From contig CAVXFA010000075.1 of assembly GCA_963760605.1 (NCBI GenBank), positions 11,237 through 75,236 of the forward strand: a stretch of DNA of 64,000 nt, given 5' to 3'. Position numbers and translations under genes: made by a program. Below the pieces are notes generated by a model that worked only from the letters and a program-made list of their open reading frames with translations, was not told where the DNA came from and did no database searches. Source of the stretch: an uncultured delta proteobacterium. GTDB lineage: Bacteria; Desulfobacterota; SM23-61. Within the stretch, counting starts at the first letter, position 1. Each line of letters opens with the position of its first letter. Below, one piece after another: positions 45,052 through 64,000 of this stretch.

Positions 45052-45139
45052 TATAAAAGGATCATCTCCGAAATAGTTGGCAAGAGCTTGGAGAATTTTA
45101 AGAGAGAAATAACGTTAATCCTGAAAGCTATATTTAAAG

Positions 45140-45190: not shown

Positions 45191-45290
45191 GATTTTCCAC
45201 TCCCTGCCGTCGAACTGACTCAATTTTTAAGTCAGCTTCTGGCCATTAGCCTCTTGCCACTGTACCGGCTTTCCTTTTCTGCCGCTCTAA

Positions 45291-46800: not shown

Positions 46801-47151
46801 ATGGTTGTTATGAAAGAGCAAAGCAAAACGTTAGAAATACGAGTTAGTAAAGCCCTCTATGATAGAGAAGCTATTATCGCGGCTGCTTACGCACTATCTG
46901 GGTTGTGCGGAATCAAAATCGAACCTGCATCTGAGCAGTTTTTAAAAGTGTCATTAGAACCACTTGAACCCCATAATGATTTAGACCTTTCGGAGTTGGA
47001 GCATAAGTTTACGAATGAGCTAATTGATCAACAACTGAGAATTGATCTTGAGAGACGATATGGCCCAATTCGCCAGCTGATTGTACAACATGCCTTCTCT
47101 CCCCTTGAAAATCTCAAGGCCGAGGTCAAGAAAATTGTCGGTCGTGAGTAG
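46801..47151 (+). CDS. hxsD: HxsD-like accessory protein of the His-Xaa-Ser system (tentative).
   Basis: The 116-aa protein sits between the precursor and the rSAM genes. The assignment rests on this context and a general family resemblance. Confidence 0.45.
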   Translation: MVVMKEQSKTLEIRVSKALYDREAIIAAAYALSGLCGIKIEPASEQFLKVSLEPLEPHNDLDLSELEHKFTNELIDQQLRIDLERRYGPIRQLIVQHAFSPLENLKAEVKKIVGRE

Positions 47152-48610: not shown

Positions 48611-49800
48611 GAGAGTTTACCGGGAAGCCAGTGGGCATACTCAAGCCAATTATGGGGATGGTTACTACAAAGTCGTCCGCCAGGAGGGCACAGCAAGTGC
48701 TTTTAGTGTTCCAGCCACGCAATATAGCCCGAAGGCTATTTTCCCGTGTCTCACCTAGTCGTTACACGGCGGCCTGTATGATTTCTGATCACGGTGGCCT
48801 CCCCTTACAAAAGAACATCCCCCATTTGCTCGATTTGTCAGAGGATAATCTCTTTCAATTGCACGATGGCGACATCGTTAAAATAGAGCCCAGCGGCAGG
48901 GTGACTGTGGTTTATGAAGCTAATTCCTTACACAATACTATATTTTTTACGAACATCTGCAATTGCTCATGCGTCATGTGCTCACAGCCTCCGGCCAAGG
49001 ATTCAGAGGACCTCTTGGAGCAGAACCTGATGCTCATTTCCCTACTGGAAAGGCGCAAGGAAAGACATTTGGGGATAACCGGAGGAGAACCTACTATATT
49101 AGCTGAAAACCTTATAAAGTTTATCCAGACGTGCAGGGCGGAATTGCCCAAAACGTCACTAACTTTACTTACCAATGGTAGAAAACTCCAAGATTTCGAG
49201 TTCGCCAGGGCGCTTGTACTTTCTGGATACCCCCGCTTGTTTATGGAGATACCAGTATATGGAGACAATGATACGGAACATGATTCCATAATGGGTGCAA
49301 GTGGGAGCTTCTACGAGACCATACAAGGTCTCCACAACCTTGCACTCTTAAGTCAACCAGTGGGCCTGCGAACAGTACTCCACAGCATGACCATAAAACG
49401 CTTGTGCCAGTACGCCGAATTTGTCTATCGTAACTTACCATTTGTTGTCCAAGTGGCATTCATGGGAATGGAAACTACCGGAGCAGCTAAGGCGAATCTG
49501 GATTGTTTATGGGTAGATCCATATGATTATCGCCATCAACTCGAGTCTGCTGTCAGGTATCTCAATCAAAGAAAGGTGCCAGTTTCAATCTATAATCATC
49601 AACTCTGTACGCTACCTAAAGATTTATGGCCATTTGCCAGGCGGTCCATTAGTACCTGGAAAGAAACTTTCCTGCCACTTTGCGATGAATGCTACGTGAA
49701 GAACTTCTGTTGTGGTATTTTTGGCACGGGCGGAAGGCCTAGCGCCTTTCTCCGTCCCCTTTTCAAGAATGAGCTGCCGAAAGCGTGGCAAGATAACTAG
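48607..49800 (+). CDS. hxsC: Second radical SAM maturase (HxsC-like), translationally coupled to hxsB (ATGA overlap).
   Basis: The CX3CX2C motif lies within NICNCSCVMC. The C-terminus has a Cys cluster CDECYVKNFCCG. Confidence 0.7.
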   Translation: MREFTGKPVGILKPIMGMVTTKSSARRAQQVLLVFQPRNIARRLFSRVSPSRYTAACMISDHGGLPLQKNIPHLLDLSEDNLFQLHDGDIVKIEPSGRVTVVYEANSLHNTIFFTNICNCSCVMCSQPPAKDSEDLLEQNLMLISLLERRKERHLGITGGEPTILAENLIKFIQTCRAELPKTSLTLLTNGRKLQDFEFARALVLSGYPRLFMEIPVYGDNDTEHDSIMGASGSFYETIQGLHNLALLSQPVGLRTVLHSMTIKRLCQYAEFVYRNLPFVVQVAFMGMETTGAAKANLDCLWVDPYDYRHQLESAVRYLNQRKVPVSIYNHQLCTLPKDLWPFARRSISTWKETFLPLCDECYVKNFCCGIFGTGGRPSAFLRPLFKNELPKAWQDN

Positions 49801-50129: not shown

Positions 50130-50537
50130 ATGGAGCTGGATAAGGTTTTTACTGAAGTTGAAATTGAAACCCCGTATTTAGAAAACACCCTCAAGAAGGT
50201 GCTTTCAATCATCAATGGGTATATGGATATTTATACCAACGGATTTGGCTCAATTCACGAAGGTCGAATTTTCGGGAATGAAGGGGTGGTTAGCGAGGCG
50301 GGGGATATTTATTTAGACTCAAAACAATTGCAGAGGCATGACGATGATGTGGCGATGGCGATCATTGCCCACGAGCTTGCTCATTATTATCTTGGCCATC
50401 ACATTAAGTCGGGTAGGGAAGCAGAAAACGAGAAAGATGCTGATGACCTTGCAAAACAATGGGGTTTCAATATTGATAAGATGCGACAAATATTTAGATT
50501 AAGAGGTGTCCAAATAGTTGGCTTGGAGAAAGAATGA
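50130..50537 (+). CDS. ImmA/IrrE-like HExxH zinc metallopeptidase (small).
   Basis: The motif AIIAHELAHYYLGHH (HExxH..H) is present in a protein of 135 aa. Confidence 0.55.
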   Translation: MELDKVFTEVEIETPYLENTLKKVLSIINGYMDIYTNGFGSIHEGRIFGNEGVVSEAGDIYLDSKQLQRHDDDVAMAIIAHELAHYYLGHHIKSGREAENEKDADDLAKQWGFNIDKMRQIFRLRGVQIVGLEKE

Positions 50538-50541
50538 GACA

Positions 50542-51099
50542 AAGATGAAGGCTACAAGAAATCATTTTTTGCGGCTGCTTTTAGCTTTTTTCATACTGCT
50601 CTTTTTCCTACCACTTCAGGCCCAGGAAAAACCGACTCCATGCCCCTCGTTGTCCGTATACTTTTCGCCCAGTCGTGGAAGCACAGAAGCCATCATTAAG
50701 GAATTGGATAATTCTAAAACCTCCGTCCTGGTTCAGGCATTCTCCTTTACCTCTGCTCCTATCGCTAAGGCCCTGCTGAATGCCCACAAACGAGGGGTTA
50801 AGGTCGAAATTATTCTGGACAAAAGCCAAAAGCGGGAGAAATATACTGCCGCTGATTTCTTCGCTAACTCCGGTATTCCGACCAAGATAGACGCAGCCCA
50901 TGCCAAGGCTCATAACAAGGTGATGGTTATTGACGGGGCGACCGTCATCACAGGATCATTCAACTTTACGCGTGCAGCAGAAGAGAAAAACGCCGAGAAT
51001 CTTCTCATCATCAGGGACAAAGCACTGGCCGAGAAGTATACTAAAAACTGGCAGGACCATGCGGGGCATTCAGAGCAGTATGCTGGAAGGGCGCGATAA
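50542..51099 (+). CDS. Secreted phospholipase-D-superfamily nuclease (Nuc-like, HKD motif).
   Basis: A signal peptide is present. The HKD motif lies in AHAKAHNKVMVIDG. The size is typical of Nuc endonucleases. Confidence 0.75.
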   Translation, partial: KMKATRNHFLRLLLAFFILLFFLPLQAQEKPTPCPSLSVYFSPSRGSTEAIIKELDNSKTSVLVQAFSFTSAPIAKALLNAHKRGVKVEIILDKSQKREKYTAADFFANSGIPTKIDAAHAKAHNKVMVIDGATVITGSFNFTRAAEEKNAENLLIIRDKALAEKYTKNWQDHAGHSEQYAGRAR

Positions 51100-51275: not shown

Positions 51276-51507
51276 CAGGAGAGCATTTTTTAGGCATGCG
51301 ATTCGACATCTTTTCGATTAACCCATCAAGCTAACCTTTAACCTTCTGGAGGATGTAATTAAAAATAGTTAATTTGCTCGAGGTGGATTTTTGAATAATT
51401 ATTTTAGTCCTTTATTAATTTTCGGAATGTCCCATTTTAAGGTAGTATTTTTCTCTTGACAAGGTTTTTGGGATTTGGTAAGATGTCCTATAAGGAGGTA
51501 GAGATAA

Positions 51508-52383
51508 ATGGACATCACAGAAATCTATGAATTGTATCCTACCCATGATGATTGCCTCGATCACCTTGAAAAAGTTAGGTGGCATGGCACCCCGAAATGT
51601 CCTTACTGTCAATCAAGCAGAACCAGCCCTCTCCCAAAGGAAAAAAGACATCATTGTAATGCTTGTAATACCACATTTAGTGTTACTGTCAAGACCATCT
51701 TTCATCATACCCATTTACCTCTTCAAAAATGGTTTCTGGCTGTTTGCTTAACGCTGAATGCTAAAAAGGGCGTAGCCGCTAGGCAAATGGCCCGTCACGT
51801 TCACGCTAATAAAGATACGGCTTGGCGGATCAACATGAAGATCCGAGAGGCAATGTCTGAAAGAGAACAAAGAGAGCTTTTAACTGGCCTTGTGGAGTGC
51901 GATGAAACGTACATTGGAGGAAAGCCACGGCCTGGGAGTGGACCACATACAAGAGGACGCGGAACAAAGAAAACTCCCGTTGTCGCATTGGCCAAAAGAG
52001 GGGTAAACAATATAAGAGCTGAGGTATTTAAAAACCGGAAGAGATTGAGCGGTAAAAACCTTAAAATGTTAGTCCGAAAAAACGTGGACACCGAGAACGC
52101 AACATTGATTACCGATGAATATAAAGGATACATTGGGATTCAAACTCTTATGCCCCATAAGATCGTTGACCATAGCGTTTGGTATGTCAATGGCGATGCT
52201 CACACCAACACCGTTGAATCTTTTTGGGCTCTCCTAAAACGGGGCATCGTTGGACAGTATCATAAAGTCAGTATGAAGCACTTACCAAAGTACGTTGATG
52301 AGTTTTCTTGTCGTTGGAACCATAGAGAGGACGAAAACCTGTGGGCAACAACTCTACAAAGAGCGCTGGAGGTGAGAGCATGA
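51508..52383 (+). CDS. IS1595-family transposase (N-terminal zinc ribbon plus DDE domain).
   Basis: The zinc ribbon is CPYCQS...CNACNT. The DDE_Tnp_IS1595-like core includes ECDETYIGGK and DEFSCRWNHRE. Confidence 0.8.
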   Translation: MDITEIYELYPTHDDCLDHLEKVRWHGTPKCPYCQSSRTSPLPKEKRHHCNACNTTFSVTVKTIFHHTHLPLQKWFLAVCLTLNAKKGVAARQMARHVHANKDTAWRINMKIREAMSEREQRELLTGLVECDETYIGGKPRPGSGPHTRGRGTKKTPVVALAKRGVNNIRAEVFKNRKRLSGKNLKMLVRKNVDTENATLITDEYKGYIGIQTLMPHKIVDHSVWYVNGDAHTNTVESFWALLKRGIVGQYHKVSMKHLPKYVDEFSCRWNHREDENLWATTLQRALEVRA

Positions 52384-53297
52384 CAAACGATAACCTACAG
52401 ACAATCCATCCAGGAAGTAAACCTGGGGAAATAATAATAGGGGATACTCGGATTCCGTGTTTCGTTTTAGAAGATGGAACAAGGATTTTGTCTGAACTCG
52501 GCGTAACTAAAGCAATGAAATCAAGAAGTGGAGCTTCAAAACGACGCAAAAAGGTGGAGCAAGAAGAGGGGCGTGCCCATTTACCGGTTTTTATGTCCTC
52601 AAATAACCTTGAACCTTTTATTTCTAATGAGTTACGAGCGGGGCTCATTAATCCAATAAAATATCGCATCGGGAAAAGAATCGCCCAGGGGTATCCAGCA
52701 GAATTACTACCGAAAATATGTGAGGTTTGGTTATCAGCCCGAGATGAGAAAAAGCTTCGTAAGGATCAATTAAGAAAATGTAAACAAGCTGAAATCTTAA
52801 TGCGAGCATTGGCCCATGTTGGGATAATTGCACTGGTTGATGAGGCTACAAATTATCAAGAAGTAAGGGACAAGATTGCACTCCAAAAGATTCTTGATAA
52901 ATATCTCTTAGCAGAATACGCAAAGTGGGCAAAGAGATTTCCAGACGAGTTTTATGAGTTAATGTTCAAATTTAAAGGATGGCAATGGAAAGGGATGTCG
53001 GTCAATCGACCAAGTGTGGTAGGAAAATATACTAACGATTTGGTATATGAGCGCTTAGCTCCGGGACTTTTGACGGAGCTAAGAAAACTAAATCCGCCAG
53101 ACGAACAAGGCAGAAGAAAATCAAAACATCAACAATGGCTTACGGAAGATATTGGACATCCCGCACTTCAAAAGCACTTAGCCATTTTGATTGCATTCAT
53201 GAGGGCGGCCCCCAATTGGACGATATTCCATCGAAACGTAGAAAGAGCATTACCAAAACTTGGGGAAACAATTCCAATGGCTTTGGATGAGGATTAA
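52380..53297 (+). CDS. P63C-domain-like protein (tentative; phage-associated family).
   Basis: The ATG overlaps the transposase stop (ATGA). The family resemblance is recalled from memory and is low-confidence. Confidence 0.35.
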   Translation: MTNDNLQTIHPGSKPGEIIIGDTRIPCFVLEDGTRILSELGVTKAMKSRSGASKRRKKVEQEEGRAHLPVFMSSNNLEPFISNELRAGLINPIKYRIGKRIAQGYPAELLPKICEVWLSARDEKKLRKDQLRKCKQAEILMRALAHVGIIALVDEATNYQEVRDKIALQKILDKYLLAEYAKWAKRFPDEFYELMFKFKGWQWKGMSVNRPSVVGKYTNDLVYERLAPGLLTELRKLNPPDEQGRRKSKHQQWLTEDIGHPALQKHLAILIAFMRAAPNWTIFHRNVERALPKLGETIPMALDED

Positions 53298-53300
53298 AAA

Positions 53301-54179
53301 TTGACTACTTTGAAGAAAATGACCAACCTTCGCCCCTTTTTCCACACAAATCGTGGTTTGCTCTATAATACAGATTGTTTCAATCTTTTTGCGTCGCTCA
53401 AGGACGAAACCCTGGACTGCATCTTTGCCGATCCGCCTTTTAATTTGGGAAAGGATTATGGAAACGGTTTTGTCAAAGATGATTTAAAGAGAGATGACTA
53501 TATAGAATGGTGTTTTTCTTGGCTCAATGAATTTGTTCGCCTTATCAAGCCAGGGGGAGCGGTATTTTTATACACGCTTCCACAGTGGGGTTATCATCTA
53601 GCTTTGCACTTAGAAAAATCTAAAATGACCTTTCGGCATTGGATTGCTCTTTCAATGAAGGGAACTTTCCCGAGAGGAAAGAAACTATATCCGGCTCATT
53701 ATGCCCTGCTATATTTTACCAAAGGAATGCCCAAGACATTTAACCGCGTCCGTTTGCCTATTCCCAAATGCCGACACTGCGGAAAGGATATCAAGGATTA
53801 TGGTGGACACAGAAAATATCTTAATCCTCTTGGCCTAAATCTGACGGACTTTTGGGACGACACGGCACCGGCTAGGCATCAAAAGTTCAAATCTCGTTGG
53901 CATATAAACGAACTCAAACCTATGATTCCATCAAGGTGTATAGAAATCTCAACTACTCCCGGAGAAATCGTAATGGATCCGTTTGGTGGTGGAGGATCAA
54001 CTTACGAATCGGCACAGCGGCTTGACCGTTATTGGATTGGAACGGAAATTGGAGATTGCGCAATAATTGAAGAAAGACTTCGAAGAAATTTTTCAAACCT
54101 AGAGAATGATGTGCCCAAGAAGCTAATTAATATCCTACAGAAAGGAAATCGAAAGTTTTCGATTCCACTATCCAAATGA
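53301..54179 (+). CDS. Beta-class DNA methyltransferase (N4-cytosine or N6-adenine), the M subunit of a type II R-M system.
   Basis: The N-terminal DPPF motif (FADPPFNLG) and the C-terminal FxGxG motif (MDPFGGGGST) give a beta-group order. This is the class to which M.BglII and M.BamHI belong. Confidence 0.8.
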   Translation: MTTLKKMTNLRPFFHTNRGLLYNTDCFNLFASLKDETLDCIFADPPFNLGKDYGNGFVKDDLKRDDYIEWCFSWLNEFVRLIKPGGAVFLYTLPQWGYHLALHLEKSKMTFRHWIALSMKGTFPRGKKLYPAHYALLYFTKGMPKTFNRVRLPIPKCRHCGKDIKDYGGHRKYLNPLGLNLTDFWDDTAPARHQKFKSRWHINELKPMIPSRCIEISTTPGEIVMDPFGGGGSTYESAQRLDRYWIGTEIGDCAIIEERLRRNFSNLENDVPKKLINILQKGNRKFSIPLSK

Positions 54180-54724
54180 CAAAAATAGTTGAGGAAGAGT
54201 CCTATAATGGGGCTAAAGAGAGGATTAAAAGACTTGGTCTTGATCCTCTCCTAAGTGAAATCCGTTCAATCATAACCGATTTTAGCCTTCTGGTTAAGGA
54301 ATCAAGGGATGCGAACGGTGGCGCAGCAGTTCGCAAGTTGATGGATGCCCAATTTCAGAAATCAAAGGGATGGTCAAAAAATCAAACGGGTGATGTGGAT
54401 TGGACTAAATGTCAGGTTGTAAATGGTACAAAGGTATGCATTGGTGTTGAGATTCAATTTTCGGCTAGGAGTGATCTATTGGTCATTGATTTGATACACT
54501 TACGGAAAGCTATCGTTAAAGGGCAGATAGATGTTGGCATACTCGTAGTTCCAAGCAATAAACTAGGGGTCTTTCTTACAGATCGGGGTCCTAAAATGGC
54601 AGATGCCAAAAGGCATGTAGTCGAAGCTAAAGCCGAAGATCTTCCTCTGATTCTGATAGCTATTGAACATGATGGCCCTGGCCCGCCGTTGGCCAAGCAG
54701 TTCAAGAGAACATCTGCGGTATAG
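54176..54724 (+). CDS. Type II restriction endonuclease of the BglII/BamHI fold.
   Basis: IGVEIQFSA matches the BglII active-site block LVEVQFSN (the E-x-Q variant of PD-(D/E)xK). The start overlaps the methyltransferase stop. Confidence 0.65.
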   Translation: MTKIVEEESYNGAKERIKRLGLDPLLSEIRSIITDFSLLVKESRDANGGAAVRKLMDAQFQKSKGWSKNQTGDVDWTKCQVVNGTKVCIGVEIQFSARSDLLVIDLIHLRKAIVKGQIDVGILVVPSNKLGVFLTDRGPKMADAKRHVVEAKAEDLPLILIAIEHDGPGPPLAKQFKRTSAV

Positions 54725-54780
54725 ATAATGACTACCTTAAAATGGGACATTCCGTTAATTTTTTCAAGGAGGATTCCACT

Positions 54781-57078
54781 ATGCCACTTCTCCCTGGAAT
54801 TGTTCAAACGTTGTTTGAGTTAGAGGATAATCCAATTCGGTTCGAGCGTGTGTGCCTCGATTTGTACAAAGACGCCGAGGGAGTCGAATTGGTTCCTACT
54901 TCCCGAACCTGGGATTTAGGCCGAGACGGGCGAAGCATTTCGATTTCGAAAAATGGGACTCTTTTAGGGATCCTTTGTGCAACATTGTCTATCGATATAG
55001 ATGGTAAAGTCGAGGCAGATATTCTTCGCCTCGCCGAAACAACAAATACTAGAGCAATAATATATTCTACATCCCGATCGTTGACGGAACACGCTTGTAA
55101 TGTGCTCGAGGCTAAAATTCGGAAATTGTACCCAGCGGTTAAATCCGTCCGTATTTTGGGTCAAATTCAACTTGTTGCTCTAGCAGAACGCTTCGAAAAT
55201 ACAATTCGTAAACATTATGCGGCAGAGATTAAAATTAGCGAGCAAGCTCTTCTGACTGTTCCCAATGAGCCAGAAAATATCGGGCTTCGTCTTGCCCTAA
55301 TTACTCAAACGGGCGATGATGCTCGAATCCTCCGAACCGAACTAACCAGGCGCCTTGTATTAGAAAGTCTTCATAGCCGAGGCTCCCAGAGCGCCGGTAG
55401 TCTTGCCGTGGCGATTTCAGGGCAACTACACCTTTCACGATCAATGACAACTAGTTACATAACTATTATTATATCATCACTAATCGAAGAGGGACTGGTA
55501 TCGAGTGACAAGGATGGCACAATATGCATTACTCCAAACGGCATAACATTTATAAGTGGGGTCCCAAAAGAGGCCAGTGCGAAATTGTTAGAAGGCCGCA
55601 CCGCAATTCGCAGAGAAATAAAAAGGCTGTCTGGGCATACGCTTACAGAGGAACAGTTTGAACGTCTTTGGGATTACTTCCAAGACGGACTTTCGGAAGT
55701 CTTTTATTCCCATGGAGCTGCTATTGTTCGCATGGTAGGTTCCTTGATCACAGGGGAACGAGGCAAACCAGAGCCAAAAACCTATTTGCTCCTCGAAGAA
55801 GTTGGCAACCACATCGGGTCCTTATTCTCTGACCCCATCCAGGGCGATGAGGTACGGCAGGCCATAATCGACATGTTCTCCGAAAAGGAAAGCGAAGCTT
55901 TTAATTGGCTAACGCAGATTTGCAGCGTATATGTGATGATGTGTTCACTAGGATTTGAGGCTTTAAGTTCTGAACAAATTACAAGAGTTCTCAGAAACTT
56001 CCGTCTTGTCCCAGATACTGACATCATTATTTCATTATTATGCGAGGGAGAAAATAACCATAAAGAGGTTTCACATATTGTTAATGGATGGAGACTCTTG
56101 GGCGGAAAAATTCTAATGTCAACCCCTGTCTTGGAGGAAACGGCTTTTCACGCTTGGATTAGTGAACACGATTATGTCCAAATGTGGGAACAGCTTGATC
56201 AAATATCAGATTCAGAAGCCTATCATTTAATTGAAAATGCATTCGTTCGCTCGTTTAGAATTTTATCAAGAGAAAATACGAGTAGGAGGTACTGGAACCA
56301 ATACATCAACCAGTATCGCGGTGAATCAGAACGTGATTACAGTCGTGTAATGCTAATTTTAAGAGAAGATTATGGGTTTGATAGGCTACCTGATGCCGAG
56401 GAGAATTACCAAAATTTTCCCAATAAAGTCAGGATTTTTTTGGCTCAGAAATTGGCCGAAAATATTGGAATAAGTTTTGAAGATTTAAGTTTTAAGATGC
56501 ATGACAAAAGTAGACGTGATGGATCTCTTTTTGGCTCCGTGCTTAGAGCAAGGGATGCATCACGACGGTCAGCGATACAATCTACTACGATTATTCTTTC
56601 CTCTTCGAGATTACTAAAACAGGCAGATCAAGCCTTCCGAAGTGAGCTTGGTGAGCCAGATGCAGTAGTCTCTACGGCCGCAGTGGGGTGTCTGTTGACT
56701 TTAACTCCGGGAGTACTTATGGGGATGGGGACCCTTCGTGAGGTACTTTTCGACTTAGGTTTAGCCACACGGCTAACGCCCATGCAGAGATATGCTTATC
56801 GGCTGATCACAGCATCCGGAGAATTTGACCTTCCTTGGTCCAGACGGGTAACTCTACAGAGGGAATTAGGCGAAAGACTCCTTTCGGACGCAAGAGCAAC
56901 TGGCGACCCTGTGCCTAAGGTCATTGAAAGGGTAATGAAATCTGAAGATCCGGAATTTTCCGTAAAGATGATTGTAAAAGCCTTGGACAATATGGCAGTC
57001 ACGCCCAAAACTGAAAAGGAGCTGCAAAGACTTAGAAAGGAAGTCAAAATATTGGAAGAGAAATTAAAAGCCAGGTAA
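54781..57078 (+). CDS. Large hypothetical protein (about 765 aa) with an N-terminal Mrr-cat-like (restriction-endonuclease-like) motif.
   Basis: FERVCLDLYKDAEGVELVPTSRTWDLGRDGRSIS fits the Mrr_cat pattern (F-E-x-L..G..V..T..D.G.D). The AGGAGG RBS lies 7 nt before the ATG at 54781. No P-loop was seen. The remainder is helical and of unknown function. Confidence 0.5.
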   Translation: MPLLPGIVQTLFELEDNPIRFERVCLDLYKDAEGVELVPTSRTWDLGRDGRSISISKNGTLLGILCATLSIDIDGKVEADILRLAETTNTRAIIYSTSRSLTEHACNVLEAKIRKLYPAVKSVRILGQIQLVALAERFENTIRKHYAAEIKISEQALLTVPNEPENIGLRLALITQTGDDARILRTELTRRLVLESLHSRGSQSAGSLAVAISGQLHLSRSMTTSYITIIISSLIEEGLVSSDKDGTICITPNGITFISGVPKEASAKLLEGRTAIRREIKRLSGHTLTEEQFERLWDYFQDGLSEVFYSHGAAIVRMVGSLITGERGKPEPKTYLLLEEVGNHIGSLFSDPIQGDEVRQAIIDMFSEKESEAFNWLTQICSVYVMMCSLGFEALSSEQITRVLRNFRLVPDTDIIISLLCEGENNHKEVSHIVNGWRLLGGKILMSTPVLEETAFHAWISEHDYVQMWEQLDQISDSEAYHLIENAFVRSFRILSRENTSRRYWNQYINQYRGESERDYSRVMLILREDYGFDRLPDAEENYQNFPNKVRIFLAQKLAENIGISFEDLSFKMHDKSRRDGSLFGSVLRARDASRRSAIQSTTIILSSSRLLKQADQAFRSELGEPDAVVSTAAVGCLLTLTPGVLMGMGTLREVLFDLGLATRLTPMQRYAYRLITASGEFDLPWSRRVTLQRELGERLLSDARATGDPVPKVIERVMKSEDPEFSVKMIVKALDNMAVTPKTEKELQRLRKEVKILEEKLKAR

Positions 57079-57413
57079 ATACCGACAAATACAAGTGGGA
57101 AGGAAATGAGCGCTTATCACTTTCAATCCGTAATTTTCAACGCCCCAACATAGTTCCCCTTATTGATTTGTAACTGTTACCAAAGGTCGCGTTTAAAAAG
57201 CTAGGCGTCAAAACCCGGGTTTTTTTCAACAAGCATTCGTGAAGGGTTGAGTAGTCTCTCACTGCGGAGGGCAGGGATTAAGGTTAAGCCACCAAAAGCT
57301 TTTCAACTTTCACTTTGTCCGGGCTGATAAAAACTGTCTTCTGGTGGGAAAAGGTCACGAAGCCGGGCCCGGCCCCTTTAGGTTTATGTAGATTCTTGAC
57401 GGGCAGGGTAAAG

Positions 57414-57468
57414 GGGACGGTCCTATTTATTGCAGTCCTCAATTTCAAAAAATTGACCCGCCCCGATT
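57414..57468 (+). repeat. Hairpin junction element copy H2 (degenerate variant).
   Basis: The sequence gggacggtcctattt-attgcagtcctcaatttc-aaaaaattgacccgcccc shares the 5' stem and loop start. The 3' half is diverged. Confidence 0.5.
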
Positions 57469-57578
57469 TTCACCAGTTTTCACGGGGGGCGTCGGGCAGC
57501 CGATTTCCTACCGCGGCCACTCATATTTTAGAAATTTATGTTCCTCCGACAATTTCCTTTTAAAGGAATAATATTTAA

Positions 57579-57607
57579 TTGACTACTTTTAAATAAAGTA
57601 GTAATAT
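57579..57607 (+). promoter_or_regulatory. Sigma70-like promoter with an embedded operator palindrome for the AbrB-PIN TA cassette.
   Basis: The -35 box is TTGACT and the -10 box is TAATAT, with a 17-nt spacer. The inverted repeat ACTACTTTtaaatAAAGTAGT spans the spacer. Confidence 0.55.
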
Positions 57608-57641
57608 AAAATGAATGTCAGAAAAAGGAGGTGGATTTGCC

Positions 57642-57875
57642 ATGCAGACTGTCAAGGTATTGCCCAAAGGGCAAATTACCCTTCCCAAACAAGTTAGAAA
57701 AAAGCTTAAGATTGGGGTGGGAGATCGGTTGCTCCTCGAGGAAGACGAAGAAAAAATCGTTCTGAAAAAAGGGAAAACGATATTCGATTATATCGGAAGC
57801 CTGCCCAGTCTGGGAATGTCTACTGAAAAGATGCGCGAAAAAGCTGTCGGGGAGGCAGCCAAGGAAAATGACTAA
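57642..57875 (+). CDS. AbrB/SpoVT-type antitoxin (VapB-like).
   Basis: The swapped-hairpin DNA-binding N-terminus is MQTVKVLPKGQITLPKQVRKKL. The RBS aaggagg is present. The gene overlaps the PIN gene by 8 nt. Confidence 0.75.
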   Translation: MQTVKVLPKGQITLPKQVRKKLKIGVGDRLLLEEDEEKIVLKKGKTIFDYIGSLPSLGMSTEKMREKAVGEAAKEND

Positions 57876-58278
57876 AGCGTTCATTGACACCAGCGTGATT
57901 CTCAGGCTGCTGATCAAGGATGACCGGGCAAAAGCCAGATCTAGCGAAAAACTGTTGAAAGAAGCAGAAAAGCGGGGACTGATCCTGTATTTATTGCCGG
58001 TAGCCATAATGGAGACAGTATGGGTGCTGGAAAAAATTTATAAATTCGAGAGAAAAACCATAAGGGAAATCATAGAAGCCATCCTTAATACCCCGCAGTT
58101 GAAGATTGAGATGGAGACCGTTTTTAGGAAGGCCATAAGGAACTACGAAGAAAAGAATATAAAATTTGCGGATGCCATGATGGGATACTGGGGATTGGAA
58201 AAAGATCTTTCCGTTATGTTTACCTATGACGAAAAGGATTATAAGAGGATTGAAGGCCTCGAGGTTCGAAGACCATGA
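57868..58278 (+). CDS. vapC: PIN-domain toxin VapC (copy 1).
   Basis: The PIN motif FIDTSVIL with acidic residues is present. The gene is paired with the upstream antitoxin. Confidence 0.8.
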   Translation: MTKAFIDTSVILRLLIKDDRAKARSSEKLLKEAEKRGLILYLLPVAIMETVWVLEKIYKFERKTIREIIEAILNTPQLKIEMETVFRKAIRNYEEKNIKFADAMMGYWGLEKDLSVMFTYDEKDYKRIEGLEVRRP

Positions 58279-58546
58279 CCTGCCTGAGCCCGAAAATCCC
58301 AAAGCAATTCCCGAAACCAATCGGTAGTTTCCGTTACCAACGCCTCACCAGAATTCTCTTCGCCCAGTCTTGACGTCGCTCGGTAGTTTTCTTCAATGGC
58401 ATATTTCCGTAACCTCTCCCCTCCCCCCCGGAATAAGCAGGCAAAGAAAATAGAGCTGACCCCGCTGGTGGTTGGCAAAAGCTTGGAAAATTTTAGGAGA
58501 GAGAAAACGTTAATCATGAAAGCTATATTTAAAGGGGACGTTAAAG

Positions 58547-58597
58547 GGGACGGTTCTGTTTATTGCAGTCCTCAATTTCGGAAAATAGTACCGCCCC
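58547..58597 (+). repeat. Hairpin junction element copy H3.
   Basis: The sequence is gggacggttctgttt-attgcagtcctcaatttcgga-aaatagtaccgcccc. It is preceded by the conserved arm ...cttggaaaattttaggagagagaaaacgttaatcatgaaagctatatttaaagg. Confidence 0.7.
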
Positions 58598-58730
58598 AAT
58601 TTTCCAAAGGTCAAACTTTCTCTCAGCGTCCCAGCCTGGCCGCGTACGGGACAAAGCAAACAAGTCGGATTTCCTTGGACTCCTGCAGGCCTGCGGGACA
58701 AAAGGAAATTTCCAATCGGGCATTTTGCAA

Positions 58731-59162
58731 ATGAAAATCGAGCTACGAGAAGACCTCGCTCCGGATCCGGATTTCTATTACCATCAACAATTCAAAATCT
58801 ATGACGAACCCTATTTGATTTGGGGCCGAGAAACATGGAAGGCAGCGCTCAGCGCATGCAGCGTCTATCAGATCGAAGCAGATGGGAGATACGCCGGAGA
58901 CCTGTTATTGGAGGACCAGAGGAAAGGCACCAAGTACATCCTTGACTTCGGCCTTTTGCCCGAGTATCAAGGGAAGGGGGTGGGGAAAGCGGTTGTTGAG
59001 CAGTTCAAGAAATTGGGCGGGAAATTCACTGCTGTCACACGAAAGGAAACTCTTGGTTTCTTCCTGAAATCCGGGTTCGTTTTGCGAAGAACGATAAGGG
59101 ATTATTACCGTCCTGGGGTGGATGGATATTTTATTGCTTTCGATGGAAAAACCAAGGATTAG
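58731..59162 (+). CDS. GNAT-family N-acetyltransferase (copy 1).
   Basis: Motif A is QGKGVGKAVVEQF. The gene is 143 codons long. Confidence 0.7.
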   Translation: MKIELREDLAPDPDFYYHQQFKIYDEPYLIWGRETWKAALSACSVYQIEADGRYAGDLLLEDQRKGTKYILDFGLLPEYQGKGVGKAVVEQFKKLGGKFTAVTRKETLGFFLKSGFVLRRTIRDYYRPGVDGYFIAFDGKTKD

Positions 59163-59277
59163 TATAAAAGGATCATCTCCGAAATAGTTGGCAAGAGCTT
59201 GGAGAATTTTAAGAGAGAAAAAACGTTAGTCATGAAAGCTATAAGCCTTCGGCCTGATGACCTTGATTTTGTTTAAA

Positions 59278-59328
59278 GGGGGCGGGTCTATTTATTGCAG
59301 TCCTCAATTTCGGAAAATAGAACCGTCC
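59278..59328 (+). repeat. Hairpin junction element copy H4.
   Basis: The sequence is ggggcgggtctattt-attgcagtcctcaatttcgga-aaatagaaccgtccc. The conserved arm upstream carries a 35-bp insertion. Confidence 0.65.
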
Positions 59329-59605
59329 CGATTTTCCACTGGCCATTAACCTCTTGTCACTGTGCCGGAGAAAGAACAACCGAATCCGTGTCCCCCTCAT
59401 ACCCATTATTTCATTCCCGTCGAAAACCCGCGAATGCGCGGGAAACCAGCCATAAAAAGAACGGCCGTTTAAAAATTTCTCCCCGCCAATGGATCAAAAT
59501 CGAGGGATTTTATCAAATGCAGAGCCGTCACTCCATAGCCCTTTTCACACCTTACACAAAAAATCAATAATCAAGACTTGAATCCGGATATGAACATTAA
59601 TCTAA

Positions 59606-60019
59606 TTATGGACGTGCCTCAAGGGGTAACTTCGCGAGAATCTGATTATAAATTTCGTGACTGATCTGAAGGGCCTCTTCAGCTTCTTGGTTTGTAGGTT
59701 CTTCCGTCCCTCCGGGGTAGCGGAATTTCCAAGCGTACTCAGTGAGGGGAGCGGCCTTATCAACTAAATCCTTCAAAGTGGGCTCTATTTTGACACATTG
59801 TCGCCCGATTTCCTCCAGACTATGGGTTTTGCGAAACGGAATATCATGCCAGGCCAGAAATCCCTTAAGCGCCTTTTCGATTGCCTGCTGGCAGTGAAAA
59901 ACCACATCTTCAAGCAGTGGAGGCGCCGCCGAAAGTCCGTGTTCAGCACTCCTTAGGTCCTTCTGGGCGTTAACAAGCCAACCGCGAGTGTCTTCCATGC
60001 GAACAGGATCAGGCTGCAT
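59606..60019 (-). CDS. HEPN-domain protein (toxin of a HEPN/MNT pair).
   Basis: The motif HCQQAIEKALKGFLAWHDIPFRKTHSLEEI matches the HEPN signature. The likely start MQPDP at 60019 overlaps the MNT stop by 11 nt. Confidence 0.7.
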   Translation of the reverse strand: MQPDPVRMEDTRGWLVNAQKDLRSAEHGLSAAPPLLEDVVFHCQQAIEKALKGFLAWHDIPFRKTHSLEEIGRQCVKIEPTLKDLVDKAAPLTEYAWKFRYPGGTEEPTNQEAEEALQISHEIYNQILAKLPLEARP

Positions 60020-60374
60020 AAAGCAACCTCCCTTCCGATATGACAGTAAATGGGAGCGAGGCACGGAGGTGAAGTCGGCGATCAAAGGCATCCTGAGTCC
60101 AAACCAGAACATCTGCAGCTATACCCGTACCCCGGAGTACTTCATAGGCTAAACGACTTCGTCTTCGCTCAGGGGGCGCAGACTCGGGGACAACGACCAT
60201 CAGGTCATAGTCACTGTCGCCACCAAAATCACTTCTGGCCCGGGAGCCAAAAAGATAGATACGTTCAGGAAGATATGCGTCAATTAAACGACACACAATC
60301 TCAGCCAGTTTCTTATCGTCCAGGCTTTTTACAGCGTCTTTCCCATCCACTCCATTATGATTCATAAGATCCAC
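60009..60374 (-). CDS. Minimal nucleotidyltransferase (MNT), the antitoxin partner of the HEPN protein.
   Basis: The nucleotidyltransferase motif GSRARSDFGGDSDYDL is present. Confidence 0.75.
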   Translation of the reverse strand: MDLMNHNGVDGKDAVKSLDDKKLAEIVCRLIDAYLPERIYLFGSRARSDFGGDSDYDLMVVVPESAPPERRRSRLAYEVLRGTGIAADVLVWTQDAFDRRLHLRASLPFTVISEGRLLYAA

Positions 60375-60515
60375 CTTTTCTATTATACCTCAGCCAATCC
60401 CATGCCACCAGAATAAGTTAACTTGTGTGATATCCCCGAGCTCTCTTTCTTCTTTGCCCATTATGACCCGGAAGGTTTCGCCCGGAAGACGGAATTATGG
60501 TAAATGGTGGTAAAT

Positions 60516-60566
60516 GGGACGGCTCTATTTATTGCAGTCCTCAATTTCGGAAAATAGAACCGTCCC
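60516..60566 (+). repeat. Hairpin junction element copy H5.
   Basis: The sequence is gggacggctctattt-attgcagtcctcaatttcgga-aaatagaaccgtccc. It is followed by the gattttcaccaattttcacgggggg arm shared with H2. Confidence 0.7.
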
Positions 60567-60698
60567 GATTTTCACCAATTTTCACGGGGGGTGTCGGTCA
60601 GCCAGATCCCTACCGTGACTTCTCATATTGGAAAATTATGATATTACGGATGTTTTAAGATCGTCCGGACAATATATTTTTAGAGGAATAATATTTAA

Positions 60699-60727
60699 TT
60701 GACTACTTTTCAATAAAGTAGTAAAAT
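60699..60727 (+). promoter_or_regulatory. Promoter/operator of the second AbrB-PIN cassette.
   Basis: The -35 box TTGACT and -10 box TAAAAT are separated by 17 nt. The palindrome ACTACTTTtcaatAAAGTAGT is present. Confidence 0.5.
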
Positions 60728-60761
60728 AAAGCCAATGTCAGAAAAAGGAGGCGGATTTGCC

Positions 60762-60995
60762 ATGCAGACTGTCAAGGTATTGCCCAAAGGGCAGATTACC
60801 CTTCCCAAACAAGTTAGAAAAAAGCTTAAGATCGATGTGGGAGATCGGTTGCTCGTTGAGGAAGACGAAGAAAAAATCGTTCTGAAAAAAGGGAAAACAA
60901 TATTCGATTATATCGGAAGCCTGCCCAATCTGGGAATGTCTACTGAAAAGATGCGCGAAAAAGCTGTCGGGGAGGCAGCCAAGGAAAATGACTAA
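60762..60995 (+). CDS. AbrB/SpoVT-type antitoxin (copy 2).
   Basis: It is about 95 percent identical to 57642..57875. Confidence 0.75.
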   Translation: MQTVKVLPKGQITLPKQVRKKLKIDVGDRLLVEEDEEKIVLKKGKTIFDYIGSLPNLGMSTEKMREKAVGEAAKEND

Positions 60996-61398
60996 AGCGT
61001 TCATTGACACCAGCGTGATTCTCAGGCTGCTGATCAAGGATGACCCGGTGAAAGCCAGATCTTGCGAAAAACTGTTGAAAGAAGCAGAACAGCGGGGACT
61101 GATTCTATATTTATTACCGGTAGCCATAATGGAGACTGTATGGGTGTTGGAAAAAATTTATAAATTCGAGAGAAAAACCATAAGGGAAATCATAGAAGCC
61201 ATCCTTAATACCCCGCAGTTGAAGATTGAGATGGAGACCGTTTTTAGGAAGGCCATAAGGAACTACGAAGAAAAGAATATAAAATTTGCGGATGCCATGA
61301 TGGGATACTGGGGACTGGAAAAAGATCTTTCCATTATATTTACCTATGACGAAAAGGATTATAAGAAGATTGAAGGCCTCGAGGTTCGAAAACCATGA
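60988..61398 (+). CDS. vapC: PIN-domain toxin VapC (copy 2).
   Basis: It is about 93 percent identical to 57868..58278. Confidence 0.8.
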   Translation: MTKAFIDTSVILRLLIKDDPVKARSCEKLLKEAEQRGLILYLLPVAIMETVWVLEKIYKFERKTIREIIEAILNTPQLKIEMETVFRKAIRNYEEKNIKFADAMMGYWGLEKDLSIIFTYDEKDYKKIEGLEVRKP

Positions 61399-61658
61399 CA
61401 GGCCCTAGTCCGAAAATCCCAAAGCAATTCCCAAAACCAATCGGTAGTTTCCGTTACCAACGCCTCACCTGAATTCTCTTCGCCCAGTCTTGACGTCGCT
61501 CGGTAGTTTTCTTCAATAGCGTATTTCCATAACCTGTCCCTGCCCCCTGGAATAAGCAGGCAAAGAAAATAGACCCCGCTGGTGGTTGGCAAAAGCTTGG
61601 AAAATTTTAAGAGAGAAATAACGTTAATCATGAAAGCTATATTTAAAGGTATTTAAAG

Positions 61659-61709
61659 GGGACGGTTCTATTTATTGCAGTCCTCAATTTCGGAAAATAG
61701 AACCGTCCC
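61659..61709 (+). repeat. Hairpin junction element copy H6 (perfect consensus).
   Basis: The sequence is gggacggttctattt-attgcagtcctcaatttcgga-aaatagaaccgtccc. The upstream tatttaaagg is tandemly duplicated. Confidence 0.75.
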
Positions 61710-61842
61710 AATTTTCCAAAGGTCAAACTTTCTCCCAGCATCCCACCCTAGCCGTGTACGGGACAAAGTAGACAAGTCGGATTTCCTTGGACTCCGGTAG
61801 GCCTGCGGGACAAAAGGGAATTTCCAATCGGGCATTTTGCAA

Positions 61843-62274
61843 ATGAAAATCAAGTTACGACAAGACCTCGCTCCAGACCCGGATTTCTATTACCATCAAC
61901 AGTTTAAAATCTATCACGAGCCCTATTTGATTTGGGACAAAGAAACATGCGAGTTGGCGCTCAGCGCATGCAGCGTCTATCAGATCGAAGTAGATGGGAG
62001 ATACGCCGGAGACCTGTTATTGGAGGACCAGAGGGAAGGTACCAAGTACATCCTTGACTTCGGCCTTTTGCCCGAGTATCAGGGGAAGGGGTTGGGAAAA
62101 GCGGTTGTTGAGCAGTTCAACAAAATGGGCGGGAAATTCACTGCTGTCACGCGAAAGGAAACTCTTGGTTTTTTCCTGAAATCCGGGTTCGTTTTGCGAA
62201 GAACGATAAGGGATTATTACCGTCCTGGGGTGGATGGATATTTTATTGCTTTCGATGGAAAAACCAAGGATTAG
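61843..62274 (+). CDS. GNAT-family N-acetyltransferase (copy 2).
   Basis: It is about 93 percent identical to 58731..59162. Confidence 0.7.
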   Translation: MKIKLRQDLAPDPDFYYHQQFKIYHEPYLIWDKETCELALSACSVYQIEVDGRYAGDLLLEDQREGTKYILDFGLLPEYQGKGLGKAVVEQFNKMGGKFTAVTRKETLGFFLKSGFVLRRTIRDYYRPGVDGYFIAFDGKTKD

Positions 62275-62362
62275 TATAAAAGGATCATCTCCGAAATAGT
62301 TGGCAAGAGCTTGGAGAATTTTAAGAGAGAAAAAACGTTAATCATGAAAGCTATATTTAAAG

Positions 62363-62413
62363 GGGACGGGTCTATTTATTGCAGTCCTCAATTTCGGAAA
62401 ATAGAACCGTCCC
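62363..62413 (+). repeat. Hairpin junction element copy H7.
   Basis: The sequence is gggacgggtctattt-attgcagtcctcaatttcgga-aaatagaaccgtccc, with the conserved upstream arm. Confidence 0.7.
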
Positions 62414-62474
62414 AATTTCCCATTGTTATCGATTTATTGCCACCTGGGACACGACGTCCCCATTTCCATTCATT

Positions 62475-63158
62475 TCACTTTGTCTTTTTTAGTTCGTCAA
62501 ATTCGTCTTTTGGCATATTCATTATGGTGTCCGCTGCTTCGTTTAATTTCTGGACCGACTCGTTCATCTCAGCGCGGCCCCGTTCCATTAATGCCATTTC
62601 TACCTCGAAAAGACGTTGAAATATGGCGTGAGCTTTCGTCTTGTTCGGCTCCACTCCTTCGCCACCCAGGGAATAGTTTCTCGCTAACGCGAGCAGGTTC
62701 ACCCGTGCCATAGGCGCTAACCATCCGCCACTTCTTCCAACTCTCACATACCATTCTATGGCTTTCTCTTCATTTTGTTGAACACCTTCCCCCTTGAGAT
62801 ACATATCCGCCAGTGTTAGCGCGGCATAAAAGTCTCCCCTTTCGGCCCCTAGGCGATACCACTTGGCAGCTTCGACGAGGTTCTTCTTGACGCCTTCCCC
62901 GTGTTGGTAACAGAACCCAAGCTGAAACGGAGCATAAGCATCGCCTTGGTTGACTTTGTCTTTCCATGATTGAATCATTTCGGCTGTTGCGCCTTCTGCG
63001 CGAGAAAGGGATGGTATAAAAAGGATCATCCAGCAAATCAGCCCAAGAATAAGAAATCGTATCATTTCTTTGAGGTTTATATTTGGGACCAAAGCTCGCC
63101 ACTTAGAACATGTATCAGTGTTCATTTCAGTCCTCCTATTTTTATTATTGTTACGCAC
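62475..63158 (-). CDS. Sel1-repeat (TPR-like) protein with an N-terminal membrane/signal segment.
   Basis: Repeated Sel1-like units are present (GDAYAPFQLGFCYQHGEGVKKNLVEAAKWY, GDFYAALTLADMYLKGEGV). Confidence 0.6.
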   Translation of the reverse strand: MRNNNKNRRTEMNTDTCSKWRALVPNINLKEMIRFLILGLICWMILFIPSLSRAEGATAEMIQSWKDKVNQGDAYAPFQLGFCYQHGEGVKKNLVEAAKWYRLGAERGDFYAALTLADMYLKGEGVQQNEEKAIEWYVRVGRSGGWLAPMARVNLLALARNYSLGGEGVEPNKTKAHAIFQRLFEVEMALMERGRAEMNESVQKLNEAADTIMNMPKDEFDELKKTK

Positions 63159-63269
63159 AACGACCAGGCTAACCCGCCGGGAACCGGACGGCGCGAAGGA
63201 CGTCGATCTGAGGCCACACTCAACTCGCCGGCCGGTTCCCGGTCAGGTTGAGCGTCTTGATGTTTCGCT

Positions 63270-63788
63270 TCATTTGAGGCTGATTTTCAATCCGTCTTCT
63301 TTCATTTGTAGCAACGCTTCTGCATTGCCACGAGCATCATCAACAGGATGATGGGTATGCTTCGTTTTTCGCAGGTGCTTGAAGTTGGTGAATGCGTCCT
63401 TCACGAGGCCTTTGTAAAGCGAGCCTAGATTGGACGAGCTGTGCCCGAAAGGATTAGTGCCAAGGAAATGATGAAAATACCAATTGATGAATTGCCAATC
63501 GAACCCATTGTTATCGGAGATGAAGAACGGACGCCCGCTGCTGTTGGCCTCGATCCAGGAGTTGAATTGATCCATGACGGTTTTGGGGTCTGCAAACTGG
63601 AGCGTTTCCTCGCGGGTGAATCCGCTGACGGCGAGCGCCTCGGGGAGCCATTTGTCGGAAATTGGCTTCAATTTACCGCAAAACGACTTTTGGAGCGATG
63701 GTTCGACGACGATGGCACCGAAGCAGATCATCGAGTAGTCGCCCGGTATCGGACCATCGGATTCGACATCGATCATGATGTAGCTCAT
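63270..63788 (-). CDS. DEDDh-family 3'-5' exonuclease domain protein.
   Basis: The Exo I motif MIDVESDG is present, with Exo II/III-like blocks (FISDNNGFD, HHPVDDARGNA). Confidence 0.6.
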   Translation of the reverse strand: MSYIMIDVESDGPIPGDYSMICFGAIVVEPSLQKSFCGKLKPISDKWLPEALAVSGFTREETLQFADPKTVMDQFNSWIEANSSGRPFFISDNNGFDWQFINWYFHHFLGTNPFGHSSSNLGSLYKGLVKDAFTNFKHLRKTKHTHHPVDDARGNAEALLQMKEDGLKISLK

Positions 63789-63818
63789 GCGATATCCTGT
63801 ATTTAAAGTATTTAAAGG

Positions 63819-63869
63819 GGACGGTTCTATTTATTGCGGTCCGCAATTTCGGAAAATAGAACCGTCCCA
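63819..63869 (+). repeat. Hairpin junction element copy H8 (compensated loop variant).
   Basis: The sequence is gggacggttctattt-attgcggtccgcaatttcgga-aaatagaaccgtccc. The upstream tatttaaag is tandemly duplicated. Confidence 0.7.
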
Positions 63870-64000
63870 ATTTTCACTGCATGGATCGCCACAGCCGTAC
63901 GGGATGGGGCCGTTGTGTCCAAGATTTCTTTATTACCTTTGTCCGACAGGTGCTCTCTTACTTCGTTATTCTTGTTATCGATTTATTGCCACCTGGGATG

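Follow-up and report, generated by a model that had tools for sequence, protein, structure and literature searches.

How did two nearly identical copies of a small gene block come to lie next to each other in one bacterial chromosome? This question is raised by a stretch of 64,000 nucleotides (the window) from an uncultured delta proteobacterium (Desulfobacterota, lineage SM23-61; assembly GCA_963760605.1, contig CAVXFA010000075.1, forward-strand positions 11,237 to 75,236), in which a toxin–antitoxin (TA) operon with an AbrB/MazE-type antitoxin and a PIN-domain toxin is followed by a GNAT acetyltransferase gene, the whole being enclosed by hairpin-forming repeats of about 70 nt. We assign a probability of roughly 60% to a repeat-mediated duplication of this block by host recombination. 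Overall, the case is an ordinary repeat-bounded segmental duplication, a further example of an already familiar type of event.

Two full copies of one block

Repeat search and local alignment gave a direct repeat of 57407-59341 against 60509-62425, with 93.9% identity over 1898 aligned positions and 56 gap bases. An identity of 94% over 1.9 kb is beyond the reach of chance. The original prediction had described two copies of about 93% identity (57553-59215 and 60673-62335); these are real and form the core of the longer repeat, and the self-alignment suggested there recovered a third copy in addition. Each ~1.9-kb copy starts within a hairpin (H2 or H5), includes a second one (H3 or H6) and ends with a third (H4 or H7), and outside of the bounding hairpins H2/H5 and H4/H7 the flanking DNA of the two copies is unlike. 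The order within the block is hairpin, linker, TA operon with its own promoter/operator, spacer, junction sequence, hairpin, GNAT gene, junction sequence and hairpin. Judged by their sequences, a single two-cassette block is represented in the window by three paralogous copies, two of them full and one decayed (Table 1).

Pfam bore out the predicted gene content of each copy (antitoxin, PIN and GNAT) as well as the HEPN/MNT module between the copies (PF05168, PF01909). The antitoxin and PIN genes overlap by 8 nt and score 42.5 bits with PF04014 (cut-off 24.7) and 41.1 bits with PF01850 (cut-off 23.6), respectively, so that an adjacent antitoxin and PIN gene in one operon, both above the thresholds, constitute a predicted VapBC-like type II TA module. 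The likeness to VapBC extends to the antitoxin lying upstream of the toxin and overlapping it, to the pairing of PF04014 with PF01850, to a putative sigma-70-like promoter over a palindromic operator and to apparently conserved acidic residues: the acidic positions of the PIN protein (N-terminal IDTS, METV, FADA and TYDE), as compared by eye and not by residue-level mapping, are the same in both copies. Unlike VapBC, the module is here always accompanied by a conserved 3' spacer of ~150-180 nt, also in the hairpin-free related contig L016. This post-PIN spacer (~150-190 nt; 58279-58457, 61399-61571 and 44756-44944 in the window, 3800-3935 in L016) was present wherever the TA module occurred among the window copies and the relatives compared. 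It may be a conserved non-coding portion of the TA module. An antisense open reading frame (ORF) in it (58239-58517) had eight close matches among 1.8 billion representatives and belonged to no family; it is probably spurious.

The HEPN and MNT genes between the copies overlap on the minus strand and score 82 bits (PF05168) and 43.3 bits (PF01909); with MNT followed by HEPN in one operon, they represent a putative HEPN-MNT TA module. The GNAT protein retains the QxxGxG motif. In TA systems of the TacT/AtaT/KacT type, a GNAT toxin is encoded together with an upstream antitoxin of the ribbon-helix-helix (RHH)/DUF1778 type. Here, the 120 nt from the hairpin to the GNAT start hold no ORF matching any family, and a function as TA toxin was rejected. 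More remote members of the GNAT family (68-71%) stand alone, without hairpins, in core regions of conserved gene context.

Divergence and selection

The two full copies have kept all three ORFs intact and share nucleotide identities of 96.6% in the antitoxin, 96.4% in the PIN and 93.8% in the GNAT gene. Over the three genes, the Nei-Gojobori method gave 0.115 for synonymous (dS) and 0.032 for nonsynonymous divergence (dN). This dN/dS of 0.27 indicates purifying selection on both copies, and the dS value that the duplication is not recent. The 91 differences between the copies are spread unevenly: two runs (168 and 167 nt) have none, and identity in other windows of 100 nt is 87-92%. Permutation (20,000 rounds) gave a P value of 0.005 for the longest run, and the second longest was never reached (P <5e-5). 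Such patchy identity points to gene conversion between the copies, or to mosaic exchange. The TA ORFs are 96.4% identical copy to copy versus 93% to L016. The GNAT identities are star-like, with 93.8% within the window versus 92.6-93.8% to copies in other metagenomes.

The third copy and the island edge

An internally deleted third copy had been predicted at 44653-45190, directly abutting the stop codon of glcF. The copy itself is real, but its remnant begins 7-13 nt past that stop (TAA, 44639-44641). It joins the PIN 3' end and the post-PIN spacer to the GNAT 3' end, the latter (44945-45051) being 98-99% identical to the full copies. The joint at 44940-44948, GACCCCGCT/CGTG/TTTTCC, displays a 3-5-nt TGGT microhomology and connects the spacer to mid-GNAT, not junction elements or hairpins. 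A deletion via junction elements, as had been proposed, is not borne out for this copy.

The proposed island boundary at ~44.65 kb withstood comparison with related contig L009, which encodes the closest GlcF (94%): homology to the L009 glcF locus stops there, and the GC content drops from ~0.52 before to 0.42-0.48 after this point. In L009, glcF is followed by two secreted-protein genes and then by a 5'-truncated GNAT pseudogene. Since the L009 DNA differs after glcF and the GC content falls, the island edge is placed at ~44.645 kb. GlcF comprises 434 aa here versus 429 aa in L009, with diverged final codons and a shifted stop (44560-44641 versus L009 1470-1550). These differences put the island junction within a few bases of the glcF end, and it may have remodelled the 3' end of the gene. 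The cassette island that houses the block copies of the window begins just past glcF and is low in GC and hypervariable. By the names given to GlcF homologues, the host is Syntrophaceae/Deltaproteobacteria-like (Thermodesulfobacteriota).

The hairpin repeat

The hairpin unit of ~69 nt reads TAAAGGGGACGGTTCTATTT-ATTGCAGTCCTCAAT-TTCGGA-AAATAGAACCGTCCCRATTTTC. Folded as single-stranded DNA, it forms a stem of 15 bp, a one-sided bulge of 6 nt and an apical stem of 4-6 bp, with energies of -16 to -21 kcal/mol (z about -5 to -6) for good copies. A covariance model (R1) built from 12 copies detected exactly eight hairpins in the window, all on the plus strand (H1 to H8, Table 1), and none in 1-44 kb or 45.2-57.4 kb. 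The 44 kb of core DNA thus hold no hairpin versus eight in the 19-kb island; the core pattern alone gave eight matches versus none expected. Spacing is 0.7-1.5 kb across 57.4-63.9 kb, with one outlier at 45.1 kb. Immediately upstream of five of the eight hairpins lies a junction sequence of ~75 nt (repeat family D6).

Tandem duplications of 9-12 nt had been noted in H6 and H8; they are present, and H3 and H5 have them too, in all four cases exactly at the 5' boundary. A supposed 35-bp insertion in an arm of H4, taken as a sign of a hot spot, is instead a 28-nt segment (59244-59271) between junction sequence and hairpin. It is shared with the metagenomic relative L007b and is therefore an inherited allele, not a fresh event.

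No covariation signal was obtained for the hairpin, the copies being too similar and their variants only breaking pairs, and a search of the window against Rfam 15 gave no match at gathering score, only chance-level matches with E values up to 5. The pattern had five single matches in a genome-contig collection, about the chance expectation, two true relatives in a metagenome collection and no match in viral contigs. An intrinsic terminator was rejected, as the terminator scan made no call and the tail is only AATTTTC. Miniature inverted-repeat transposable elements (MITEs) are recognised by terminal inverted repeats matching an insertion sequence (IS) and by target-site duplications flanking each copy. 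The hairpins lack flanking direct repeats, their duplications being tandem and one-sided; origin as a MITE of the local IS1595 element was also dismissed, because the likeness is confined to a motif and the arms are wrongly oriented for abutted IS ends. The hairpin is an unclassified lineage-specific palindromic element.

Further short sequences accompany the hairpins. The motif CTTGTTATCGATTTATTGCCACCTGGGA is repeated right after H7 (62423-62452) and ~90 nt after H8 (63965-64000), and in L007 (2605-2635) it is joined to a half-deleted hairpin at an AATA microhomology. A post-hairpin segment, (CTGACTCAATTTTTAAGTCAG)-CTGGCCATTARCCTCTTGNCACTG, is common to 45205-45275, 59337-59365 and L007 660-740. 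Its CTCTTGCCA is complementary to TGGCAAGAG of the pre-hairpin junction sequence, and this pair could form an outer inverted repeat around H1 and H4.

Table 1. Features of the duplicated block, its remnant and the neighbouring cassettes (positions of the window)
Feature	Position	Strand	Annotation
Third copy, part 1: PIN 3' end (to ~44755) and post-PIN spacer	44648/44654-44944	+	repeat family D1; 93-95% identical to full copies
Third copy, part 2: GNAT 3' end (stop ~45049-45051) and ~75-nt junction D6 (45063-45140)	44945-45133	+	families D2, D6
H1	45134-45202	+	R1 93.9 bits
H2	57408-57476	+	R1 81 bits; most degenerate, folds poorly; left end of block 1
Linker and TA promoter/operator, copy 1	57477-57641	+	84-89% identical to 60579-60761, small indels
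Putative promoter TTGACT-17-TAATAT, copy 1	57579-57607	+	overlaps palindrome ACTACTTT..AAAGTAGT
AbrB/MazE-type antitoxin (SpoVT fold, 77 aa), copy 1	57642-57875	+	PF04014, E 6e-11
PIN-domain toxin (136 aa), copy 1	57868-58278	+	PF01850, E 3e-10; ORF intact
Post-PIN spacer and junction D6, copy 1	58279-58540	+	spacer to ~58457; D6 58458-58535
H3	58541-58609	+	R1 92.3 bits; tandem TTAAAGGGGACG x2 before it
GNAT acetyltransferase (143 aa), copy 1	58731-59162	+	PF00583/PF13508; intact; QGKGVG motif
Junction D6, 28-nt extra segment (59244-59271) and H4 (59273-59341)	59174-59341	+	right end of block 1
HEPN (59606-60019/60112) and MNT nucleotidyltransferase (60009-60374)	59606-60374	-	PF05168, E 5e-23; PF01909, E 5e-11
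H5	60510-60578	+	R1 91.5 bits; left end of block 2; GGTAAATGG x2 before it
Putative promoter/operator, copy 2	60699-60727	+	sigma-70-like, overlapping palindrome
Antitoxin, copy 2	60762-60995	+	Pfam MazE/AbrB
PIN toxin, copy 2	60988-61398	+	Pfam PIN
Junction D6 and H6	61572-61721	+	TATTTAAAGG x2
H6	61653-61721	+	R1 100.2 bits; TATTTAAAGG x2
GNAT acetyltransferase, copy 2	61843-62274	+	Pfam GNAT
Junction D6 and H7 (62357-62425)	62286-62425	+	right end of block 2
Sel1-repeat protein cassette	62475-63125	-	PF08238, E 1e-18; begins at GTT core of attC to its right
attC of exonuclease cassette	63155-63262	-	fold -29.4 kcal/mol, z -3.7; among the strongest hairpins of the window
RNase T/DEDD-type exonuclease cassette	63270-63788	-	PF00929
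H8	63812-63880	+	R1 93 bits; fold -20.7 kcal/mol; perfect-palindrome apical stem; GTATTTAAA x2 before it

The block in related contigs

The comparison of gene order suggested in the original prediction revealed these cassettes in different arrangements and with different deletions (L006, L007, L009, L010 and L015), which characterises the region as recombination-prone. In contigs L006, L007 and L010, this hairpin and GNAT cassette have other neighbours. Several of their junctions are without a hairpin and have breakpoints at 2-5-nt microhomologies, and in L007, L010 and L015 hairpins or cassette parts were lost at short microhomologies. In L015, a PIN gene, the spacer, other DNA and the 3' part of a GNAT gene stand, without a hairpin, beside the 258-aa gene that follows H1 in the window. 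This arrangement suggests that the third copy is an old resident that decayed differently in each lineage. L007 contains one full GNAT gene and a second GNAT 3' fragment on an independent contig; considered together with the third copy 13 kb away in the window, this indicates that genomes of the lineage characteristically hold more than one copy.

The TA module and its 3' spacer occur in L016 and L017 at 93% identity, without hairpin or junction sequence. The hairpins are therefore not part of the TA module. Because the window copies have linker, junctions and hairpins in common, the hairpin-free L016 and L017 argue for a duplication of the block in this lineage and not for two acquisitions of a bare TA module. 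In both contigs the module adjoins an apparent tRNA 3' end, at which ARAGORN called no tRNA.

Origin of the duplication

We propose that the two full copies arose from a segmental duplication within the lineage, the ends of which would have been set by the ~70-nt hairpins of same orientation, and the coincidence of block ends and hairpins is observed. The most likely route would be that sister chromosomes underwent an unequal exchange of the RecA type at their hairpin/junction repeats, after which a second HEPN/MNT unit would have been lost. Alternatively, the block may have been excised between two repeats and re-inserted at a third. Selection has since kept both copies, as their dN/dS shows, and the resistance of TA modules to loss may explain their retention. 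The copies would have diverged to ~6%, with patches homogenised by gene conversion, and the copy at the island edge would have decayed by illegitimate microhomology-mediated deletions, one junction of which is observed. In this process the hairpins would supply homology and probably stall replication. Recombination between junction elements, as originally predicted, is supported insofar as the block ends are hairpins; the deletions in the third copy and in the relatives lie at microhomologies and do not fit it.

Several observations weigh against a duplication by host recombination. The second copy is followed by the Sel1 cassette and not by HEPN/MNT, so a single unequal crossover is insufficient and at least two events are needed. 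At only ~70-140 nt, the repeats are short for RecA to recombine them efficiently. The GNAT copies are no closer within the window than between samples, and hence the duplication must be old or the GNAT parts were swapped with other strains. Finally, the sharp ends, the single orientation and the boundary duplications in four of eight hairpins would also suit a site-specific enzyme.

Such an enzyme is the core of the first alternative, in which the hairpins are sites of a dedicated integron-like system. A divergent tyrosine recombinase or HUH/Y1 enzyme encoded beyond the window would have excised the block between hairpins and re-inserted it. We regard this as unlikely, with a small but real chance of being correct. 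All eight hairpins share one orientation and are confined to the island, the conserved unit has sharp ends (TAAAGG...ATTTTC) and, in four copies, the tandem duplications exactly at its 5' boundary, and most cassette ORFs lie on the minus strand and start 14-125 nt from a hairpin. The intervals of 0.7-1.5 kb, each with one gene or TA pair, the same-strand palindromes and the acetyltransferases resemble sedentary chromosomal integrons, which likewise have cassette-sized intervals, same-strand palindromes, TA cassettes with own promoters and acetyltransferases (PMC13108822, PMC4889954). Moreover, the array extends past the end of the window at 64 kb, and an integrase could sit just beyond.

The hairpins themselves do not conform to this system. 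Their arms read 5' GGGACGGTTCTATTT ... AAATAGAACCGTCCC 3' on either strand, with the flanks TTTAAAG and AATTTTC. An attC site is built as 5' R'' (RYYYAAC)-L'' ... L'-R' (GTTRRRY) 3' and includes extrahelical bases and a central spacer that is not paired. In the hairpins it is the 5' arm that has GTT and the 3' arm that has AAC, which is the reverse polarity; they have neither an R box nor an unpaired spacer, and they were rejected as attC sites. Their stem variants only break pairs, and the hairpin-less junctions of the relatives are microhomology deletions and not clean site-specific products. Both the TA module and the GNAT family occur elsewhere without hairpins.

To identify recombinases, ORFs of at least 100 aa taken as genes in 45-64 kb and 10 further ORFs in 1-44 kb were scanned with Pfam, NCBIfam, PADLOC and PHROGs. 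No integron integrase was found among these ORFs of the window, past which the array extends, and no Y1 transposase or other candidate; only DDE transposases, of IS1595 and of one IS4/IS5-like element, were recovered. The window contains no attI. That the cassette shuffling of the original prediction is the work of a dedicated mechanism was thus not substantiated, since no recombinase was found among these ORFs and the hairpins fail as attC sites. Clustered attC sites that lack an integron integrase (CALINs) are defined by two or more attC sites of the same strand within 4 kb (PMC4889954). A strict scan of the island for R/L boxes gave no attC, and a relaxed constrained-fold scan for AAC...GTT gave only the site at 63155-63262. 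As the defining integron and CALIN features were tested and not found for the hairpins, we do not file the hairpin array as an integron; it behaves as a cassette island punctuated by repeats. The more specific view that the ~69-nt bulged hairpin is the site of an undescribed cassette-array system, with a recombinase outside of the window and with the TA and GNAT block and the 9-12-nt duplications as its footprints, has in our opinion only a slim chance of being right.

One true attC nevertheless lies in the array, so cassette traffic does reach the locus. The site at 63155-63262 has paired L boxes with an extrahelical C, an R' of GTTGTGC and an R'' with a 2-nt deletion, and it lies downstream of the exonuclease gene to which it belongs. 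An exonuclease protein with 98% identity is encoded on L008, an unrelated contig of the European Nucleotide Archive, where a unit of ~640 nt at 98% identity (9990-10630) lies between attC sites (GCCTAAC ... GTTATGT). The homology to L008 ends at its 3' side exactly at GGTCGTT, the integron crossover point, and in the window hairpin H8 takes the place of the cassette's first 23 nt. With an ORF, its own attC, a G/TT boundary and the same unit in another array, the exonuclease unit is an integron cassette. A genuine integron cassette has therefore entered the array. The protein family is very widespread, with more than 8000 matches and ~80% identity across Planctomycetota and cyanobacteria.

In the second alternative, the copies are alleles of one mobile block that were acquired separately, from different strains of the population, and inserted side by side. 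The star-like GNAT identities, the many arrangements of the same cassettes in related contigs and the exonuclease cassette as a recent horizontal transfer into the array would agree with such acquisitions. We nonetheless consider them distinctly improbable, because the TA parts of the two copies are mutually closest, the copies have lineage-specific linkers and junction sequences in common, and the long identical tracts point to exchange between copies within one genome. Lastly, an assembly artefact, in which strain variants of one locus were joined in series via hairpins or a repeat was mis-expanded, could account for an identity of 94%, which is within the range of strain variants, and short-read assemblies of relatives do break at these repeats (contigs of 1.2-2.8 kb), but it is very improbable given that the copies differ by 6% plus indels, that their right-hand neighbours differ (HEPN/MNT versus Sel1), that the independent L007 contig has a full GNAT gene with a second 3' fragment, and that a third partial copy lies 13 kb away.

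Relation to known systems

The array has its nearest analogue in sedentary chromosomal integrons and CALIN arrays, such as the superintegron of Vibrio cholerae with its attC repeats of the Vibrio cholerae repeat (VCR) type. Both have short, mostly single-gene cassettes between near-identical same-strand palindromes, acetyltransferase cassettes and interspersed TA cassettes with own promoters, some of them duplicated; one cassette of the island even has a canonical attC and a GTT crossover boundary. In V. cholerae, three toxins are duplicated and the array repeats are a substrate for homologous recombination (PMC13108822). Unlike in integron arrays, the eight repeats have the reversed AAC/GTT polarity and no R/L box, unpaired spacer or extrahelical-base layout, neither IntI nor attI was found in the window, the attC-like site is single, and a 12-kb repeat-free block (His-Xaa-Ser system, phospholipase D (PLD)-family nuclease and IS1595 with restriction-modification) interrupts the array. 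To our knowledge, integrons are at present the only well-described general platform of cassette capture, and the finding would be weightier if the hairpins were true sites of a new recombinase.

Functional analogues are duplications mediated by repetitive extragenic palindromes (REPs) and the promoter/stem-loop (PeSL) cassettes of phages. REPs are ~35 nt long, are scattered over the whole genome in either orientation and go together with RAYT transposases. Like REPs and bacterial interspersed mosaic elements (BIMEs), the hairpins are short imperfect intergenic palindromes that serve as end points of duplications and deletions and decay by pair-breaking mutations. They differ in their length of ~69 nt, their bulged two-step stem, their single orientation and their restriction to one island within 64 kb. 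In phages of the T4 type, repeated regulatory stem-loops (PeSL) flank small gene cassettes and mediate shuffling by homologous recombination. The flanking of small cassettes by repeated stem-loops is common to both, whereas PeSL belong to a phage genome and have a regulatory function, and the present hairpins lie on a bacterial chromosome and were not called by the terminator scan.

The case is a clear illustration of the way in which TA modules and short palindromic repeats mould a variable cassette island, here of an uncultured lineage of syntrophic deltaproteobacteria. It brings together a duplication bounded by repeats, selection that keeps both copies, gene conversion in patches and decay through microhomology deletions, and a genuine integron cassette is embedded among non-attC repeats.

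Other features of the window

The repeat-free part of the island includes a His-Xaa-Ser system (46801-49800) with HxsD (TIGR03976) and the radical SAM maturases HxsB (TIGR03978, 586 bits) and HxsC (TIGR03977, 350 bits); no HxsA was identified at this locus. After it come a SprT/Lit-like metallopeptidase (50130-50537) and a PLD-family nuclease similar to DrmC/NucT (50518-51099). An element of the IS1595 family (51417-54760), bounded by 38-nt inverted repeats (87% complementary), carries besides its transposase a P63C-domain protein, an N6/N4 DNA methylase and a BglII-like restriction endonuclease, and is hence an IS with a type II restriction-modification system as passenger. Two island proteins of 778 aa (54742-57078) and 258 aa (45291-46067, minus strand) had no match in Pfam, NCBIfam, PADLOC or PHROGs, nor did the 778-aa protein match among PDB sequences. 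The 258-aa gene is conserved beside the TA-GNAT remnant in L015.

Two very stable GC-rich hairpins (18381-18490 and 27081-27190; -54 and -67 kcal/mol for windows of 110 nt) have the motif CCCTCACCC..CCCTC...GGGGAGAGGG/GGGTGAGGG in common and look like a separate interspersed palindromic repeat of the core genome. An IS4/IS5-like DDE transposase (DUF4372 and DDE_Tnp_1; 11125-12288, minus strand) adjoins a patch of GC 0.42 at 12-14 kb, and transposase and low-GC patch (11-14 kb) may represent a second small insertion in the core region.

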